From the NCBI GenBank assembly GCA_004022145.1, contig RCNU01000049.1: DNA of 17,554 nt. One strand, given 5' to 3'. Made by a program: the position numbers and the translations under genes. How positions within the stretch are numbered: position 1 is the stretch's first letter; every line of letters begins with the position of its first letter. A model generated the notes under the pieces. That model had not been told where the DNA came from and did no database searches. It saw nothing but the letters and a program-made list of their open reading frames with translations. Shown here piece after piece: positions 5,291 to 15,875 of this stretch. The DNA comes from Paecilomyces variotii. Taxonomy: Eukaryota.

Positions 5291-5809
5291 CAGGATATAG
5301 CTTAGCCCAGCCAGGGATAAGCTTAGCCCACCCTAAAAGCTCATACCACCCAAATATTTAGGATCTCAGCGCACCCCAAGAAACTTTAATTTTTCCTAGC
5401 CTATTTAGGCATAGTAGAAATATATAAAAAATATTATAAAATAATTTATATTTTAGTCTATATTATATATTAAAATTAGGATTTTAGGATTTTAATTAGG
5501 TACGCTAGGGCAAGAGTTAGTAAATTACACATAGAAATTCGAAAATTATAAATCTTTCTTAGTTTTTTAATTCTTAAAAATCGATTTTTAGATATTTAAT
5601 TTTTCTTTTTTTATATATATAAGATATAGGTTATAACCTATATAAATATTTAATTTCGAGTAAAATATCTTTAGGTTTCAACTTTTAATAAATTTTTGAA
5701 GTTTTTAATTTAAAAGCTCGGCCTACTTAAAAAATAATAAAAATATTTGGGTGGGCTGAGCTTTTAAGATAGGCTAAGCTTGCCCCCGGCTGGGCCAAGG
5801 TATAGGCCC
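5291..5809. mobile_element. Non-autonomous Mutator/MULE-family MITE (519 bp)
   Basis: 69-bp TIRs at 5291-5359 and 5741-5809 and a perfect 9-bp TSD tcttatttt (5282-5290, 5810-5818). The TIRs match those of the 8823-15512 element. No coding capacity. Confidence 0.93.
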
Positions 5810-6639
5810 TCTTATTTTAAAGCCTTTTATATAATAGTTAAGCTATAATTTCCTTAAGCGCTTATAATAGCTAAAATTTAAAAACTTATTATACTTTATA
5901 TAAAACTATATAAATATATTATAGTAAAATAATCTTAGAATAAATTCTCTTAATATCCTTTATTAACTACTTAAAAATATTTTTTTCTTTTATAAAGCAG
6001 CTTTAGTAATATAACTCTTTTAATCTTTAAGAATTTAATATCTATAATTAATTATTCTACTTATTTAAAAATTAAGTATAACTCTTATATAATTATTATA
6101 ATTTATAGGCTAAGATATTTATTATATAATATCTTTATATTAAGCGCTAAATTCTTATAATAGCGCTCTATATATAATTCCTATTATCTTAAATCTCTAC
6201 TAAATATTTCTTTACTATTTAATTCTCTTAAATTAATAGAGTTTATCTTATTAGCTTTTTACTTTCTTAATATATTAATTATTATATAAATATAGTTATA
6301 ATAGCCTATTTATAGCTTAAGATCTAATTACTTTAAGATTTTATACTTAATACCTAGATCTATAAAGTCTAGGCGATAAATAAATTTTATTAACTTATTC
6401 TTAGCCTCTAATTAGCTAAATAATTTTATAGATTATAACCTATAAAATCTTAATAAATTAGAAGTCTATATTTTAAAATAAGTGAGATTAAATACTATTA
6501 TATTTTATATAAGATAAGAAGCTAATACTTTAGCTAAGAGATAAATAAGCTTATAAAATTTAAGTAGCTTAAGTAAAGAAAGCTATAAAGGCTAAAAAAA
6601 TAAATAATATAGTATTTTAACTCTAGTACTATAACTTAT

Positions 6640-7678
6640 ATAAGCTAATAACTAATAATAAACTATAAAAATTTAAATATAGAAGTTTAAAGCTAAGTAA
6701 ACTTAATTATTAATTCTTTATTTAAATAATAAAGATATTAAAATCTTCTCTAAGAAATAAATATATAATATTAAGACTAATATTAATAGCTTCTTAAGAA
6801 ATATAGAGCTAAATAAATAATCTATAATAACCTTTAGTAAACTATTAAATATAAATAATATTATAGCTTAATAATAAGTAAGATAGCTATTAAACTATTT
6901 TTAACCCTTATTATTATATATAAGCTATATTAAATTTAATATAATATTATTATAGCTTATTTAAAGACTTTATTAAATAATAAATAAGTCTATATATAAT
7001 AGCTAATAAAATTTACTATAATAATAAATAAATCTATATATAATAGCTAATAAATATTACACTTTATATAGATTATAAGAATTTATTAATTTATAAAATA
7101 AAATACTTATAAATAAATTTTAAGATCTTTATATCTTAATTAATATTAAATAGAAAATAATATATTATTATCTATATTAATAATATATTTATAGCAGTAC
7201 TTATAAAAGAAAATATTAATATATTTATTATAAATCCTAGCTATAATAAACCTCCTTATAATAAATTTCTTGCTATAACAAATTAAATATTATATCTAAT
7301 TTATCCCCCTATATAAATATTTATTAAATTGCCCTATAACAAAATTTGTTCTAACTCTTTAGATTTTACTGATTTTTATATAGGGATTTATTATAATAAG
7401 TAATATATTATATATAAAAATCCTTAAATAGCTAATAAAAATTATTTATTTTTAAGGCTATATTATATAATATTATAAAATTTTAGTCCCAAATAAGGAT
7501 TATATAATAAAAATTACCTTTTACTAATATTTACTATAGCGAATTACTTGCTATAATAAATCTAATATATTATCTAATTTAATTTATTATAGCTAGGATT
7601 TACAGTATTATAATTTTAAGTAATTACTTTAATATAAAAATTCTTAATAAATTCTTTAACTTCTTAAGTTATAAGCTC
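6640..7678 (+). pseudogene. Ty1/Copia reverse transcriptase relic, copy A (interrupted by a MITE, truncated at ~7678)
   Basis: K*IYNIKTNINSF (KWVYDVKTDADGF) at ~6755; IAYL (TAYL) at ~6951; IIIYINNIFIA (YVDD) at 7173-7184; after the MITE, FNIKILNKFFNFLSYKL (FDMKILGE..FLG). Confidence 0.85.
7228..7605. mobile_element. pogo/Tc1-mariner-type MITE (378 bp) inserted at TA
   Basis: TIRs ttataaatcctagctataataaa and tttattatagctaggatttacag (reverse complement ctgtaaatcctagctataataaa), flanked by TA at 7226-7227 and 7606-7607. Removing it restores the Copia RT sequence seen in copy B. The motif ctataa(c/t)aaa repeats internally. Confidence 0.88.
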
Positions 7679-7823
7679 TTAAAGCTAATAAAGATACTTA
7701 ATTAAAGAACTATTTAAAGGCTAAGCTAAACTAATCTATCTAGCTATTACTCTGCTAATTAAGCTAGCTATTAGCGCAGGCAACTACTATTAGAGCCTTT
7801 AGAAATACTAAAATATTTCCTTT
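7679..7823 (-). repeat. Probable polypurine tract plus partial 3' LTR of Copia copy B
   Basis: About 55 nt after the pol stop, the minus strand reads attaaaggaaa|tattttag, a plausible RIPed PPT followed by TG. A less AT-rich non-coding stretch follows. The partner LTR is not in the window. Confidence 0.35.
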
Positions 7824-7877: not shown

Positions 7878-8822
7878 TTAAATATCTAATTTCTTTAAAT
7901 TTATAAGCTCCTAAAACTTATTAAATTTAACTTAATTTAATAGCTTTATTAAGCTATCTGCTAGATTTATTTTACTATTAATCTTCTATAATTTAATTAT
8001 ATTATTAGCTGCTATAATTTAAATAAAGAAATAGTAATTATTTAGCTATTTAATAATTAATTTATAACTCCTATTTTTAATTAAAATTGCGGTATTTACT
8101 ACATTAGTCTAGATAAGTATAAGAATCTCTAAATCTTATTTAAGACTTAAGGGATAAGCTAGCTTTCTTATAAATATAACTTCTTTTATTATAAAATTTA
8201 ATATATAAAATTTAGTAATTATTATTAATAGAGCTATTATTTATTATTTCTTACTAGACTAGCTAATAAATATGCCTTTATATAATAATATAAATGCTTT
8301 AATTAAAGTCTTATTAGAGTTATCTAAATAACTAATATTTATATAAACTTTAATACCTCTATTAAGATCTACTCTTAGTTTAATACTATAATTAAAAGCT
8401 TAATAAATATATTATAATAAATATTTTATTACTTTAATATTTTTATTATTTAAGTTATTTATCTTTTATTATAAGCGGTTTATAGCTTAAGCTAAGTCTA
8501 ATTATATTTTAATTATTAACTAGCTTAATTTTCTAATAAAGATTTAATATTTAATTTTAATATCTTTATTAACTAATTCTTCTAAAATCTTTAGTCTATA
8601 TATTAATATTATAAAAATTTAAATTCTTATTAATTTACTATTATAAAAGCCGAAGTTAGTTAAAATAATTAATATATAGCTAGCTTAGCTTATAATAATT
8701 ATTCCTTATATTTAATCTCTATTAAGCTTATAACTTAAGAAGTTAAAGAGTTTATTAAGAATCTTTATATTAAAGTAACTGCTTAAAATTATAATAAAGA
8801 TATTAATATCTTTTTTTATAAG
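7878..8822 (-). pseudogene. Ty1/Copia RT C-terminus and RNase H relic, copy B (3' part)
   Basis: The minus strand reads FNIKILNKLFNFLSYKL, VYINISY (VYVDASY), IS*SSKK**IIALLIIITKF (SWSSKKQ..APSTT.AEF), and NYYFFI*..NLADSLIKLL (RYFFVR..NPADGLTKPL). Stop at 7878-7880. Confidence 0.9.
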
Positions 8823-8887
8823 CGGGATATAGCTCGGCCCAGCCGGGGCTGAGCTCAGCCTACTTAAAAAGCTCAGCCTACTTAAGA
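8823..8887 (+). repeat. Left TIR of MULE
   Basis: cgggatatagctcggcccagccggggctgagctcagcctacttaaaaagctcagcctacttaaga, with internal repeats of agctc(a/g)gcc. Confidence 0.93.
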
Positions 8888-9301
8888 AAAATCTAGGTTT
8901 AGCTCAGATATTAAGTTAGTTTTAGTATAGCGTTTAGGTGGGCTTAGTATATGCACAGCTTATATAACTTATAATAAAGTTTTTATATTATATTATAGTA
9001 AACTATATTTGTTAAAAATTATATATAGTATATATTCTATATATATCGCAGCATATACTAAGTATAAGTTAGAGTAATACTGGGATATATATAGGGAGCT
9101 GGAACTGATATTATTCTGCGCAGTTTATTAAGGCAATATATATAAAGGCGGTTATTAAGTATATGCTAAAGTAATATTAGAATTCTGTTATATAGAAGTT
9201 TATATTATTTATATTATTTTTAATCTTTCTAATAATACCTTTACCCTATCTCTATAGTACTATAGTCTACCTTCTTATATTATTGCTGTATAACTATAAA
9301 A

Positions 9302-10740
9302 ATGCCACTATATTTAAAGGAACTTCTTATTTATAATATAGTTTTATTAGTAGATAATCTAATAAATTATAGGTATTATTATAATAAGTATATCTCCGCT
9401 TAATATTAAGCATATATTAAATAAAAATAGGCCCAGTTCTTAACCTGAATCTAATATAGATCCTAAACTTATATATTATAGCTAAGCAGGAAAATAAGAA
9501 ATCTAATAAACAGATATTATATATATACTAAAAGCGCGCTAAATATAGATAATGTTTATAATTACTGCTAAAGAAAATGCCTATATATTAATTCTTAAAT
9601 CTTCTATCTTAAATATAAATAGGAATATATAAGTCCTTTCTTTAAAATTAACTAAGTATATATTAAGCTTTTATAGTTGTTGGGTATAAATAAATGCAAA
9701 TAGCCTATTTATATATAATAAGGTTATTAATTTATAGCCCGCTGTAAGTCTAATATAAGTTTTATATATATATAATATACTAACAGTTGAAGTTATAATA
9801 TTATATAAGGATTATATACCTGGGGGCGAATATATTATTGTCCTTAATATATATTAGATATATACTAATCTATTATAGTATTAAACTGCAATATAGAAAT
9901 TAATAATATAACTACAGATAAGAAGATAATTAGGCTATAATAAGTTTAAGATATGTTCCATATATATTAGAGCTATATTAATAATATATAGTGCGCTAAT
10001 TAAATATATTTTATTTAATAAGTAATAAGATATTAACTTTATTTATAAACTATAATAAGTTTTAGGCATATATAGAGCTTATATTAAGCTAATATTTTTT
10101 TTAGTATAGGAAGTATACTAATTAAGGGTATTATTATATCTTATAAAGAAGTAGCTTACACTAATAATAAGTTCAGAAACAGCTACAGGAGCCAGTTTTA
10201 TTAGAGAATAAATTTAGTATATACTAATATATAAATAGAATCTATATACTATTTTTTTTACTATTTATATTGCTATTTATATTATTATTTATATATAACT
10301 TATAACTCTTAGCAGGCTTTTTAAATATATTTAGTATATGCCTAATATTAACTTTAATTAATCTCGGCCTTTATTTCAGCGTCTTATATTTTTATTAACT
10401 TTATTTTATAAGCGCGTAGTAAGTATATCCCTATTTATATTATATATATGCTGACCTTATATAGACTAGAAATATCTTATTACTATAAGATAATAATAAT
10501 AGAAATAATAGTAAATAGCCTTTTAATTTATCTTATATATATACTAAACTAAGTTATAATATAGGTCTTATCTTAATTCTATTAAAGCATAAATAGTCTA
10601 TATCTTATAATAAATATGCGAATAGATATACTACTGATAAGAAAATATTAATTAAATTAGAATATAGCTATGCTTATAGTTATAGCTATAGATATTTTTA
10701 TAGCACTAATAACTATAGTGCTAAGTCTATTAATAAGTTT
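9302..10740 (+). pseudogene. Second gene of the MULE, unknown product, multi-intron, RIPed
   Basis: TATA-like tatataaagg at ~9139 and ATG at 9302. Canonical fungal introns on + at 9744-9786 (gtaagt..ctaacag) and 10419-10464 (gtaagt..gctgac..atag), plus a probable RIPed intron at ~9384-9430. The 3' end is approximate. Confidence 0.55.
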
Positions 10741-10868
10741 TTTTTTTTTTATATATAGAGTATATGCTGAGTTTATATCTATAAGTTATAATCTCCTTTT
10801 TTAAGGATAAGTTTTTAGAGGCCTTAAATATATAGATATTTAAGCCCAGCTCTCCCCTAAGCATATGC

Positions 10869-10966
10869 TTAATATTAAACTTTAATTTAATACTAAGCTC
10901 TTATGTTTGAAGATTATTAATACTAAACTTTGGTTTAATACTAAGTTCTTATATTTAAAGACTATT
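10869..10966. repeat. 48-bp two-copy tandem repeat
   Basis: ttaatattaaactttaatttaatactaagctcttatgtttgaagatta versus ttaatactaaactttggtttaatactaagttcttatatttaaagacta, differing only by transitions. Confidence 0.85.
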
Positions 10967-11377
10967 TTTTTGTATCTTTAAATAATTGCAATATAATATT
11001 CTTTATTTTTTTATTTATTCTTATTATAGGGGAAAAGGAAATATATATATATATTTATTATATAACTATAGCTATATAGATATATATATTTATTATATAA
11101 ACTATTGTAATAATCTTTTTCTTTCTTGCTTAAATTCTTATTGCCTTTATTTTATTATTTCTCTTAATTAAATAGCAAAATTAGTCTTTACTATTTTTTC
11201 TAATAAGGGTCCTCTGTTATAGTATATATAAGCTTTATTTTATCTAGAATCTATACTTAACTCTTAGATAATATATACCGGATATAAAGTTAGTATATAT
11301 TTTAGATTAGAATTAGCAGAGCTATCTAAATCTAATAAAGGGGTTTGAACCCTTCTAGATATTAGAATAGTATTAAA

Positions 11378-12054
11378 TTAAATCTGGCCTTAAATATAAC
11401 TAGAACCTTTAGATCTACCTTTTTCTTAACCTCTATTTAATATATGCTTTTTACTTAATCTGCATTGAGAAATATAATTTAAGTCTGATTTTTTAGAGCT
11501 TAGCTTAGTTTGCTTAGTCTTAGATTAAATCTGGCTTTAATAATGATTAGAACCTTTAGATTAATCCCTTTCTTAATCTTTATTTAGTATATACTCTATA
11601 TTTAATCTGTATTGAGAATAATAATCTAAATCTGATTTTTTAGAGCTTAGCTTAGTCTATTTAGTCTTAGATTAAATCTGGCTCTGATAATAACTGGAAC
11701 CTTTAAGTTAACTTTTTTCTTAATCTTTATTTAATATATGCTTTATACTTAATTTATATTGAGAATAATAATCTAAGTTTAATTTTTTAGAGCTTAGTTT
11801 AGTTTGCTTAATCTTAGATTAAACCTGGCTTTAATAATAACTAGAATCTCTAGGTCGATCCCTTTCTTAATCTTTTTCTTAATTTTTATTTAGTATATAC
11901 TCTGTATTTAATCTATATCAAAAATGATAATCTGAGTCTGATTTTTTAGAGCTTAGCTTAGTCTATTTAGTTCTAGATTAAACCTGGCTCTGATAATAAC
12001 TGGAATCTTTAAGTTAACCCTTTTCTTAACCTTTGCTTAGTATATGCTCTATAG
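11378..12054 (-). repeat. 147-bp (49-codon) tandem array, ~4.5 copies, within the transposase C-terminal region
   Basis: Units start (ttaaa(t/c)ctggc) at 11378, 11525, 11672, 11819 and 11978. Periods are 147, 147, 147 and 159, the last with a 12-nt internal duplication. Confidence 0.95.
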
Positions 12055-15000
12055 ATGTTTTATCTCTAGCCAATATATATTTAGCAGAAGGTTTAGATGA
12101 GGATATTAAAATAATCTTAAAATTAGCATTTTTATTAAAAGATTAATTATTATTATTATCTAAAGGTATATTATAGGGATTATTAGGATTAAATAGTAAA
12201 TAAGATTGATTTATTTAATAATTAGCAGCTTTTTAATTCTGTTAGTCTAAAAGATATGTTTAGTATATATTTAAAGATATATTAAACTTTTATCTTACTA
12301 TTTCTTTGTATCTATTAGGAGATCTATATAATATTACTATAGTTTTATTATGTATTATTAATACTATAGCTAAAAAGCTTTTGTTATTTAATAATATCTT
12401 CTATATATTATTATAGACTAAATATAAATTAGCCTTATTAGTATTTAATCTATATTAGACAGATATTAAGTATATGCTGAATATAAATATACCGTTAAAT
12501 AGCTTTTAGTAAAGATAGGTTTCTCCCTATATTATAATTATCTTAAAAGTAATTATTTTTAGATAATCTAATATGCTTTTAAGTATAACTCCACTATTTA
12601 AAAGGGATTTTTAATATTTCCTATAATAATACAGTAAGAATCTATAGTTTTATTTTGCTTTAAAGCTATTTTTTAGTATCTAGATATTCCTTACCCTATT
12701 AGTATATAGTTTAAAGGATTTTTTAGTAAGAATATAGATCTTATAGATATTTTAGTTAATAAATAAGGGGATAGGATTTTTTAAATTTTTTGTAGAAATT
12801 GTATTTAATATATATTTAGTAGAAGATAAATATATACTTAAGATATTTTTGCTAATCAAGGGAAGGATAAATAAAATATAAGTAGTTACTAAAGCCTAAA
12901 TATATTTAGTATATACTCTGCATCTATTAAGATAATATTAATTAGGTGCTTATTTTTTGTATATATCTATAATAATAGTTTATATCCCTTCTCTATTTAA
13001 AATATGTGCCTATTAAATATATTAATATACAGCTTATAATAATGTTTGAAATAATAATTTAAATATTTAAAAATATATATAATAAGTTTATAGAGAGATA
13101 AAAGTATAGTAATAAATATTAATCCTTAATATAAAGTTAGTATATGCTAAATGCATAATAAGGAGAAGTTAAATATATGTCTAGCTTTAGAATTCCAGCT
13201 TAAGATTAAAAAGATATTTATATTTCTAAGTACTATCTTATAAGCTAAATCTATTTTAAGATATTTAGCTTTTATAAATGCTTTTGCTTGAGTATTTATA
13301 TAATAAATAATAATATATTCTTTAGTTTTATTAATATTAATTGCGCGAATCTATTATTTATCACTTTTTCTATATTAGTTAAACTTATACTCTCGCATAA
13401 TCCCTATATAGTATTAGTATATATAAAATATATAATAAGAATAGATTCTAACTAGCAATATTTAAATTAAATAGGTATTATAGAAGTTTTTGTTTTTAAA
13501 TTAAATAAATAATTTTATCCTTAATATTTAAAGAAGCTCTAATTGAATTTAGAGCTTAACCTTAATATTTTTACTTAAATATATATATTTTAGGAGATAT
13601 TAAGAATTTGTCTATAAATATCTGGTCAGCATATATAGAATATAGGCTTAAGGTATATATAATATATGCGCAGTTATAGTAAGAATATCTCCTTAATTAA
13701 TTAAATCTGTGAGTTTTTAAATAAAATCTTAACTCAACTTAATTAATAATAGAGGAAAATATATATAATCTTCTTAATAAATAAAAAGAATAAAAGGAAA
13801 ATAATCCTAATTATAAGAAATAAAAATATTAATTAAAGCATTATATTCTTTATATAGGACTTTAGATATATCTTAAGGGTAGTTAAATCCTAGACCTATA
13901 GTTAATATATGCCTAGTATATATAGAGTAAATACCTACCGCAAATTATGTGCCTTAAAGTAGTATAGTTAATATAGATATAAGTAGATTAAATAGGAGTA
14001 TTAGTATTATATATCTTATAAGCTATTAAGATATATAAATAAGGCATATAAATTTAAGCTGTATATATAGAGATAGCTTATATAGTATACTATAGTTTAA
14101 AATTATTTGCTAATAAGCAATTAATAAAGGTAACTGGTGGTTAAGGATATATTTAACATATGCTAAGATTAAATATAGAGTTAAACTTACTTTATGCTAT
14201 TTAAAGATTACTGGAGTTTAATTTAAATATACCTATATTTTATTTTCTAGATAAAAATAATGCCCTACTGATTATTAATTTTAAAAATAAAGAAATCTAT
14301 TATACTAATTTTTAGTTTCTTTTTTAAGAAATTTATTAGCAGAAGTAGTATTGGATATATAGCTTACTTCTTTATAAAGCATTTTAAAGATATTTAATTT
14401 AATATAGTTATATTTATAGTATTGTCTAAATATATGCTCTAGTATATACTTATAATATTTAATGCCGCTATATTTATATGCCTAATAATATGCCTTGCTT
14501 TAAATTTTATTCTTTTTATCCTTTTAAAAAAGTAGGAGAGATAAGGTCTTATAATCACCTTAAGTATAGAGCTTAAACTAGATCTAAGCTATATTTAGTA
14601 TATGCTTATAATATATTAAATATCTGCTTAAGATAAGGTATAGATATACCTTTAATAAAAGTTATTGAAATATTCAATAGATATTTATATTAGAATAGTT
14701 ATAAGGCAAAGAATTTTTTTAGTAGATAAAATATAAGATATTATTAAAATAAGTTATTAGATATTTAAGAATAGATAATTTATCCTAAATATTATTAACT
14801 ATAATCTTAGAGATATTACTGTAGCTAATAATAATACCTATAAGAGAAATAGTTTTTTAGATATACTTAGCATATACCCTGCTAGAATTTATATAAAAAG
14901 AATATATTTAATTAAGTCCTATATAAAGAGGAAATTTAGGATATATCTTAAATTTTTTATTTTTACTTTTTATATAAGAATAGATACTGCTTTAATTGCT

Positions 15001-15447
15001 TATTATATCTTTAAACTAGTTTAGGTATACTTTATAAAAGTTATAGTTCTGTATAAGTTTGCTCTGTAGTAAGTTAGCGTCTAGTCTAAATATAATAAAT
15101 ATTAAATATATATTTAGTATTTGCTAGGCCTCTGTAGGAATTATATTAATATATTTAAACAGGAATATTATACAGCTATTAATTGAGAATATTATTAATT
15201 TAGCTATTAGTTATAGTTACTTAATTCTTGGCTATTTTTAGGTATTTAGGGAAAAAGTAATAGTATTTAGCTTTATATTAGCTATTATATATGTATATAT
15301 TATAAATTTTAAAGAGTTTTATTATATAAATATTATTATTAATTCTTAGATAGGCTAATCTTATATTAATTATGCAATTGGCTTATGCCGAGCTTATACT
15401 TGATCTGTGTATAAGATGGGTTAAGCTCAACCCAGCTAAGGATGAGC

Positions 15448-15512
15448 TCTAGGATAGGTTGAGCTCTTAGGGTAGGCTGAGCTCGGCCCCGGCTAGGCCG
15501 AGGTATATGCCC
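15448..15512 (-). repeat. Right TIR of MULE
   Basis: Reverse complement gggcatatacctcggcctagccggggccgagctcagcctaccctaagagctcaacctatcctaga. A subterminal near-palindrome gggttaagctcaaccc lies at 15418-15433. Confidence 0.93.
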
Positions 15513-15875
15513 TTTTATAAGTATTACTATAAGCATATTATTAATATAAATAATAATATATTATTCTCTATTTAATATAAGGATATAAAGATCTTTTTTT
15601 TAATAATATAGATCTTATTTTATAAAGTTTATCTATAAGTATTATATTTTATAAGTTAGCAGATTCTTATAATTTATATAGGATATAATAAAATAAGCAG
15701 ACTTAATATTTTTTTTATAATAAATTCTATTAGCTATTATATATAAATTTAATTATTATTTAATAAGGCATTTAAATAAGCTATAATAATATTATATTAA
15801 ATTTAATATAACTTATATATAATAATAAGGGTTAAGAATAGTTTAATAATTATCTTACTTACTACTAGTATAGTA
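15513..15875 (-). pseudogene. Ty1/Copia RT relic, copy B (5' part, containing YVDD)
   Basis: The minus strand reads IAYLNA and IIIYINNMLI (YVDDML at 15537-15548). It aligns with copy A ~6875-7208 as reverse complement. Confidence 0.88.

Follow-up and report, generated by a model that had tools for sequence, protein, structure and literature searches.

Palindrome arrays and a putative zinc-finger accessory gene in a Mutator-superfamily transposon lineage of filamentous ascomycetes

We analyzed a 17,554-nt stretch of the genome of Paecilomyces variotii (contig RCNU01000049.1; hereafter the window), in which positions 8823-15512 are a dead copy, mutated through repeat-induced point mutation (RIP), of an autonomous Mutator-superfamily transposon. 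The element belongs to a Pfam-dark lineage of filamentous ascomycetes that is divergent within Mutator. Besides a transposase gene it carries a second gene, gene B, and copies of an eight-letter palindrome, GCATATGC, recur in almost all of the short introns and spacers of the two genes. We propose, at slightly less than an even chance, that the accessory protein B binds these palindrome arrays and controls the chromatin or expression of the element, most likely against silencing.

A two-gene element and its accessory gene

The window copy is flanked by a perfect 9-bp target-site duplication (8814-8822 and 15513-15521) and bounded by terminal inverted repeats (TIRs) at 8823-8886 on the plus strand and, as an inverted match, at 15449-15512 on the minus strand. 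The TIRs are about 64 bp long in the consensus; the left one contains short internal direct repeats and is common to a 520-bp family of miniature inverted-repeat transposable elements (MITEs). In the window copy itself, the inverted arms 8824-8880 and 15455-15511 (57 nt) are 84% alike. A search of the P. variotii genome gave 87 matches, and the fetched stretches hold 11 full-length copies, all collinear end to end, left arm included, with a full transposase gene. Ten of the 11 retain a target-site duplication (perfect over 9 bp in seven copies, 9 bp with one mismatch in another, and 10 bp in two), and copy L002 has none; excerpts of PMC6446971 give a range of 8-11 bp for Mutator-like elements (MULEs). 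A nested origin of the left arm, where gene B lies, is ruled out by this collinearity: no nested boundary is seen in the copies, and the region is present in 11/11 full-length copies.

The 6.8-kb consensus was built from 18 rows (ten full copies and eight partial ones, 12 rows spanning the left arm; the eleventh full copy, discovered afterwards, is not included) and is only partly restored from RIP, at 37% GC. Among 14,361 differences from this consensus, 14,284 are C>T or G>A, and the longest stop-free frame of the window copy is 81 codons, so that this copy is dead. Every copy found in the P. variotii genome is RIP-damaged, and RIP has been demonstrated in this species, as stated in excerpts of PMC6300479.

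Gene B, RIP-inactivated, lies on the plus strand at 9302-10910 and was modelled as 323 codons in 13 exons (9302-9383, 9431-9505, 9553-9628, 9677-9743, 9787-9829, 9879-9939, 9992-10054, 10105-10207, 10313-10324, 10380-10418, 10465-10510, 10553-10732 and 10786-10910). An earlier reading made from the letters alone (the sequence-only reading) had recognized a complete Mutator element with TIRs and target-site duplication, a minus-strand DDE transposase and a plus-strand gene starting at ATG 9302, all of which our analysis upheld; the two introns it proposed, 9744-9786 and 10419-10464, are exactly introns 4 and 10 of our 12-intron model. It had overlooked the palindrome, a conserved C2H2 finger (9678-9819) and further introns, ten in gene B and ten in the transposase gene. 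The ATG is intact in 6/12 copies, and the first exon equals that of relatives in length. The model, which was drawn before any homologue was seen, contains four internal RIP-type stops and the final stop, against 20 and 37 stops in the shifted frames. Its residues 11-209 match a profile of five full-length database proteins with 114 bits (E 1.6e-34), whereas 500 shuffles peak at 6 bits and both shifted frames went unlisted. On unspliced DNA the same profile finds no match in the raw window and a weak one in the consensus. A conserved spliced reading frame is therefore present in the consensus; exons 1-8 are backed by homology, and exons 9-13 stand mostly or wholly on the model alone.

Eight database homologues of gene B were found among 2,245 candidates. 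The proteins measure about 260-350 residues and contain an NPS..GYH.GPIPN block at the N terminus, a single C2H2 finger, a helical block and a variable basic tail, all but the tail being conserved. The single C2H2-type zinc finger (9678-9819, plus strand) is split by intron 4; its C, C, H and H are invariant in the five database proteins, and in the window's family the first His is a RIP-type Tyr codon. Weak Pfam matches to zf-C2H2 (E 0.07-0.09) occur in three of the eight homologues, in which we found no other Pfam family and no enzyme signature. A further Cys/His cluster had been suggested at 10615-10700. A possible, lineage-specific Cys/His-rich stretch does lie in frame in exon 12 (10612-10700, plus strand), but it falls outside the part conserved in relatives and is mostly unrecovered from RIP, with only two Cys codons restored; the proposed LECGH fails, the codon after L-E being His-type and not Cys. 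The gene B profile matched none of 14 candidate stretches from viral contigs and none of 15 from prokaryote genomes, as expected. An Atlas search with the gene B protein reached 0.90 at best, to unnamed clusters, with structure matches below TM (template modelling score) 0.35.

Transposase patterns picked out 18 metagenome loci, seven of which carry a gene B homologue beside the same transposase. Eight of the 18 cannot show gene B because their sequence stops at most 711 nt from the aligned transposase; it is missing despite room from L081-L083, three loci of one element. The seven positive loci represent about four independent lineages, L072 and L077 being one element and L074, L075 and L080 one subfamily. 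L072 forms a complete and seemingly intact element whose TIRs are 52 bp long and whose duplication is 10 bp. P0170 (355 residues) is encoded on a contig of 1,291 nt, shorter than the ~1,690 nt spanned by its exons in L074, which argues that it derives from a spliced transcript of a relative. The database homologue P0166 belongs to locus L067; two others are annotated as genes of fungi, Lepraria and Phialocephala, and the surroundings of all database proteins other than P0166 are not visible. Because homologues adjoin the same transposase in 7/18 loci, gene B is almost certainly a dedicated accessory gene of the element and not a captured host fragment. The sequence-only reading was thus right to see a dedicated, conserved second gene on a fungal MULE, and homologues adjoin this transposase in 7/7 visible loci. 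The convergent layout that it described, which is also that of maize MuDR, holds for the window and for five of the seven relatives (L072, L074, L075, L077 and L080) but is not fixed, the two genes of L067 and L073 being in tandem.

Palindrome placement, phasing and sister clades

The consensus contains 25 copies of the palindrome GCATATGC, where 0.22 are expected; genome-wide there are 564 copies in 30.1 Mb, one per 53 kb. Fourteen of the 25 consensus copies are intronic, four lie in the left spacer and seven are coding, five of these in a tandem repeat. When RIP changes are allowed and at least two of the four G/C are kept, a RIP-compatible copy is found in all 22 modelled introns, a count that is not fully independent because the motif helped to spot introns. 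These comprise the 12 gene B introns (42-105 nt, between 9384 and 10785, plus strand) and the ten transposase introns (between 12455 and 15154, minus strand), with seven exact copies in the consensus for each gene. In the left non-coding region (8947-9166), exact palindromes stand at 8947, 9028, 9051 and 9159 of the consensus. A degraded copy lies at 9136, and the TATA-like box previously read near 9139 is probably a RIP product, as the consensus there is this degraded palindrome. In the raw window, 27 sites fall inside the element (2.5 expected) and one outside (0.5 expected).

Exact copies number 2-36 in 15 of the 18 metagenome loci and are absent from the other three. The intact relatives L072 and L074 hold 33 and 36 copies inside the element, respectively, and none outside, and among relatives the density is about one per 100-250 bp along the whole element. 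In seven relative loci (L071 and L077 being omitted as duplicates of L072), 54 of 71 motifs lie outside protein-aligned stretches (~47% of spans), a placement that is rough because it was obtained by automatic alignment, with one span inflated. An introner-like origin of the introns is unlikely, since the position of the motif varies, its distance to the acceptor ranging from 4 to 88 nt, and since the motif also occurs outside introns. Z-DNA was likewise set aside: GCATATGC alternates purine and pyrimidine, whereas the sister palindromes described below do not.

Weaker copies around GCATATGC are phased, with 78 at a distance of 11 bp, 21 at 22 bp and 8 at 33 bp, when 4 are expected per distance. 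The inner repeats of the TIRs vary between families, while the palindrome stays the same. The MITE that shares the TIRs contains no GCATATGC, not even in RIP-compatible form (eight copies), and the palindrome is therefore not needed in cis for mobilisation. One such MITE of 520 bp, with the 64-bp TIRs of the element, lies at 5292-5811 of the window; eight copies were aligned, most of them flanked by visible duplications.

In a tree of one catalytic exon, the elements with GCATATGC form one clade (support 100/99), their transposases being only 37-60% alike in this exon; its sister clade includes L081 and L051. L081 bears an AACYRGTT palindrome, likewise phased at 11 bp, and L051 a TACYRGTA palindrome with looser spacing. 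Reading by eye gave a different C2H2 gene, split by an intron, in each of the two, and these second genes have no mutual similarity by tblastx. L051 1460-9901, together with L065 to about 3345 (G000:C1), is a two-gene element, distant and nearly intact, whose transposase belongs to the same family. It bears 23 TACYRGTA palindromes, a 2-kb AT-rich insert, long TIRs and a 9-bp duplication, and its convergent gene encodes a C2H2 finger split by an intron as well as a CxxC-x6-C cluster. L081 438-8174 is a complete element with 25-bp TIRs, 20 AACYRGTT palindromes and a different small C2H2 gene, and a third gene is possible between its two.

Transposase family, related elements and surroundings

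The Mutator/IS256-type DDE transposase gene, RIP-inactivated, occupies 11090-15235 on the minus strand (start and stop approximate), with about 11 exons and ten introns of 38-69 nt; exons 3-10 are backed by homology and exons 1-2 are not. MULE DDE transposases bear the signature D..D..CxxH..E, and the consensus recovers D 13251, D 12967, C 12821, W 12668, E 12560 and H 12551, with the CxxH histidine (12812) being a RIP-type Tyr codon in 13/13 rows. In 90% or more of 65 family proteins, D, D, CxxH, W, E and H are retained, and the family has Cys/His-rich N-terminal blocks that are candidate DNA binders. Toward the tail, a 147-bp tandem repeat (11368-12053, minus strand; 2.4-8.6 units among copies) with one palindrome per unit probably codes for a 49-residue Ser/Arg/Gly-rich unit.

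Pfam gave no meaningful match on 12 raw read-through frames of the window, and a profile of the RIP-damaged transposase exons matched none of 8,000 candidate proteins. One transposase exon retrieved a near-intact distant paralogue in the P. variotii genome. With this paralogue as query, 675 relatives were counted and 150 listed; those with names among the matches listed come from Eurotiomycetes, Sordariomycetes, Dothideomycetes and Taphrina. The consensus is matched by 55/151 proteins. Neither Pfam MULE (PF10551) nor Transposase_mut matches any of 31 tested family proteins, and PF10551 has no match anywhere in the P. variotii genome. The lineage is therefore divergent, a Pfam match being a practical marker and not a definition. 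For a structure model of the relative P0011, Foldseek ranks 1-5 are ISCth4 of the IS256 family (PDB 6xgx, 6xg8, 6xgw; best E 1e-4), which we take to belong to IS256/Mutator, and the first Atlas match of P0011 is a MULE cluster (0.95, 181 shared features). ISCth4 differs from the family transposase in being prokaryotic, with a single gene and 12% identity.

The sequence-only reading implied that a two-gene fungal MULE was new; the layout is real, but the novelty was overstated. Mutyl of Yarrowia lipolytica is a fungal Mutator-like element of similar size (7.4 kb) with a transposase, a second gene mutB and 9-10-bp duplications, as described in parts of PMC6446971, PMC5014426 and PMC9865632; mutB is placed in the same orientation in the text and antisense in a table of PMC6446971, and in the same excerpts one fungal group is tabulated as having "1 or 2" open reading frames (ORFs). 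The TIRs of Mutyl measure 22 bp according to these excerpts, which place it with Hop; the present lineage differs in being missed by Pfam MULE and in having about 22 introns and palindrome arrays. MuDR of maize resembles the element by description in having a transposase and a second gene between TIRs, mudrB being described as needed for integration (PMC6446971, in part); the layout of the window lineage varies between convergent and tandem. In the literature searched (Repbase, subscription journals and supplements lying outside its scope), we found no description of the lineage, protein B or the intron palindrome, and the excerpts of PMC13004909 and PMC5751038 added nothing. The two-gene layout is thus not new in fungal MULEs; the conserved finger protein and the phased intron palindromes are unexplained.

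Other copies and repeats were noted along the way. An older subfamily (L044, L045, L050, L022 and L052) has a left arm about 77% alike, with gene B exons present. A second family is represented by one RIP-damaged copy, L046 1935-7680 (G000:C34), whose TIR ends are similar and which has a duplication of 9 bp and keeps relics of GCATATGC (11 vs 2.7 expected); gene B scores 38 there, against controls up to 34, and is without a profile match. Two RNA and two DNA runs, their reads placed on copy L039, gave RIP-type fragments only, with no joint at any modelled intron, which speaks neither for nor against expression. Short matches of L039 944-980 and 6023-6073 (runs X16, X19 and X20) to contigs with GC-normal loose ends hint at unmutated relatives in fermentation samples and are possibly due to chance. 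Within the window, inverted matches link the flanks with other parts, 6869-7216 with 15505-15867, 7606-7677 with 8725-8796 and 1760-1906 with 7669-7815, so that the element sits amid a nest of other RIP-damaged repeats; a 254-bp tandem duplication lies near 1760-2270.

Possible function of protein B and alternatives

Judged from sequence, the chances that protein B is the reader of GCATATGC are about even; that the outcome of its binding is anti-silencing or activation is, taken overall, possible but doubtful. Protein B would bind double-stranded DNA at the GCATATGC arrays, probably in adjacent dimers along one helix face, and would thereby coat the whole element, the many small introns serving as places to keep sites without disturbing proteins. 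Once bound, it would control the chromatin and expression of the element, and most likely would keep it open against host methylation or heterochromatin in the manner of VANC for VANDAL.

The analogy is with VANC21 of the Arabidopsis element VANDAL21, which, according to excerpts of PMC5735166, removes methylation and binds motifs of 9 bp that are concentrated in the introns and the remaining non-coding sequence. Both systems combine a Mutator-like element and an accessory gene with an element-specific motif of 8-9 bp in introns and non-coding parts that differs between related families. The VANC motifs described in those excerpts are non-palindromic and expand as tandem repeats, and their binding and demethylation have been shown, whereas the present element has an 11-bp-phased palindrome with about one cluster per intron, TIRs and a predicted C2H2 protein. 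VANC21 is the best match in mode of action, and we claim no membership. A second gene has also been proposed to counter silencing in fungal DNA transposons with TET/JBP genes (excerpts of PMC12730594); these carry enzyme cargo and belong to other superfamilies, whereas B has no enzyme signature. In its broadest form, which we offer tentatively and consider rather unlikely, our proposal is that this widespread lineage encodes sequence-specific self-recognition: a small finger protein would coat the element through helically phased palindromes in micro-introns retained for that purpose and shield it from silencing, protein and site would be replaced together between clades, and the whole would be an independent fungal counterpart of VANC.

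Several observations weigh against binding by protein B and a protective role. One recognisable finger is little for an 8-bp site. Nothing under E 2 was found for the gene B protein among PDB sequences, and its structure model, built from five sequences, failed with a predicted local distance difference test score (pLDDT) of 41.5, too poor for a search with the fold. The 11-bp phasing is weak in L067 (2/18) and in the RIP-damaged consensus (3/25 under strict counting; 27 neighbours for 40 sites when relaxed). Coding sequence holds 17/71 of the copies in relatives and 7/25 in the consensus. Motif and gene B co-vary on a single branch, so that kinship alone suffices and co-evolution is unproven. 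Moreover, all copies in the P. variotii genome were destroyed by RIP with their sites unprotected; retention is 0.36 at the motif and 0.35 for the same trinucleotide, and protection from RIP by the motif is rejected accordingly. Vegetative silencing might be all that the system acts on.

Protein B might instead read the arrays as a repressor, keeping copy number low by damping expression of the transposase and of itself. The same anatomy would serve, with sites spanning the promoter region and both genes, but a repressor needs sites at promoters only and not one per ~100-250 bp throughout, and we consider this unlikely. We judge it similarly unlikely that the motif is a splicing or RNA signal, either as branch-point context or as a site on pre-mRNA through which B or a host protein gates the splicing of the 22 introns. 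The strong intron bias suits this idea, as does a branch-site consensus directly following the motif in 13/71 cases in the sense orientation against 1/71 in antisense, another point that counts against a DNA-bound protein B; the sister-clade palindromes are branch-site-like too. On the other hand, 58/71 motifs lack an adjoining branch consensus, the distance to the acceptor is as variable as stated above, sites also occur in spacers and coding repeats, and strict 11-bp phasing with two-fold symmetry suits double-stranded DNA.

The core of GCATATGC, CATATG, is of the E-box type bound by basic helix-loop-helix (bHLH) proteins, and a host factor might read the motif while B does other work, such as MURB-like help with integration. 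A motif unchanged across transposases as diverged as those of this clade would be expected with a conserved host reader, but the sister elements share the design with quite different palindromes, which suggests a reader encoded by the element and changing with its site; a host reader seems improbable. There is a slim chance that the transposase itself binds the internal arrays for self-regulation or synapsis, as with the subterminal repeats of other DNA transposons. Its Cys/His-rich N-terminal blocks could bind DNA, and the motif follows the transposase tree as well as it follows gene B; against this, the MITE moves without any motif, the sites are internal and not subterminal, and the TIRs have family-specific repeats of their own. 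Finally, that gene B is a captured host gene without a role for the element, the Pack-MULE-like alternative raised by the sequence-only reading, is largely refuted and very improbable: apart from the Lepraria and Phialocephala homologues, which are annotated as genes and whose neighbourhood is not visible, gene B travels with the transposase clade across unrelated fungi, next to the transposase wherever surroundings can be seen, its introns bear the element's motif, the database matches are only eight and none has a Pfam family, gene B is complete and of no known host family, and no full-length copy has lost its transposase gene.

The lineage bears on how DNA transposons persist under fungal RIP and methylation, where the fungal counter-silencing candidates that we found in print are untested (excerpts of PMC12730594). 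Pfam misses the transposase family described here, whose number in fungal genomes is probably underestimated. For the idea of a helper or anti-silencing protein, the palindrome arrays give a concrete target, and the lineage offers a named protein, an 8-bp site with a spacing rule and the intact elements L072 and L074; with the MITE as a natural negative control and sister clades with other sites, the idea is directly testable. If binding and shielding by protein B were confirmed, the pair of protein and site would be a portable tag and reader for keeping transgenes expressed in moulds, and there would be a selective reason for the dense short introns of this transposon.

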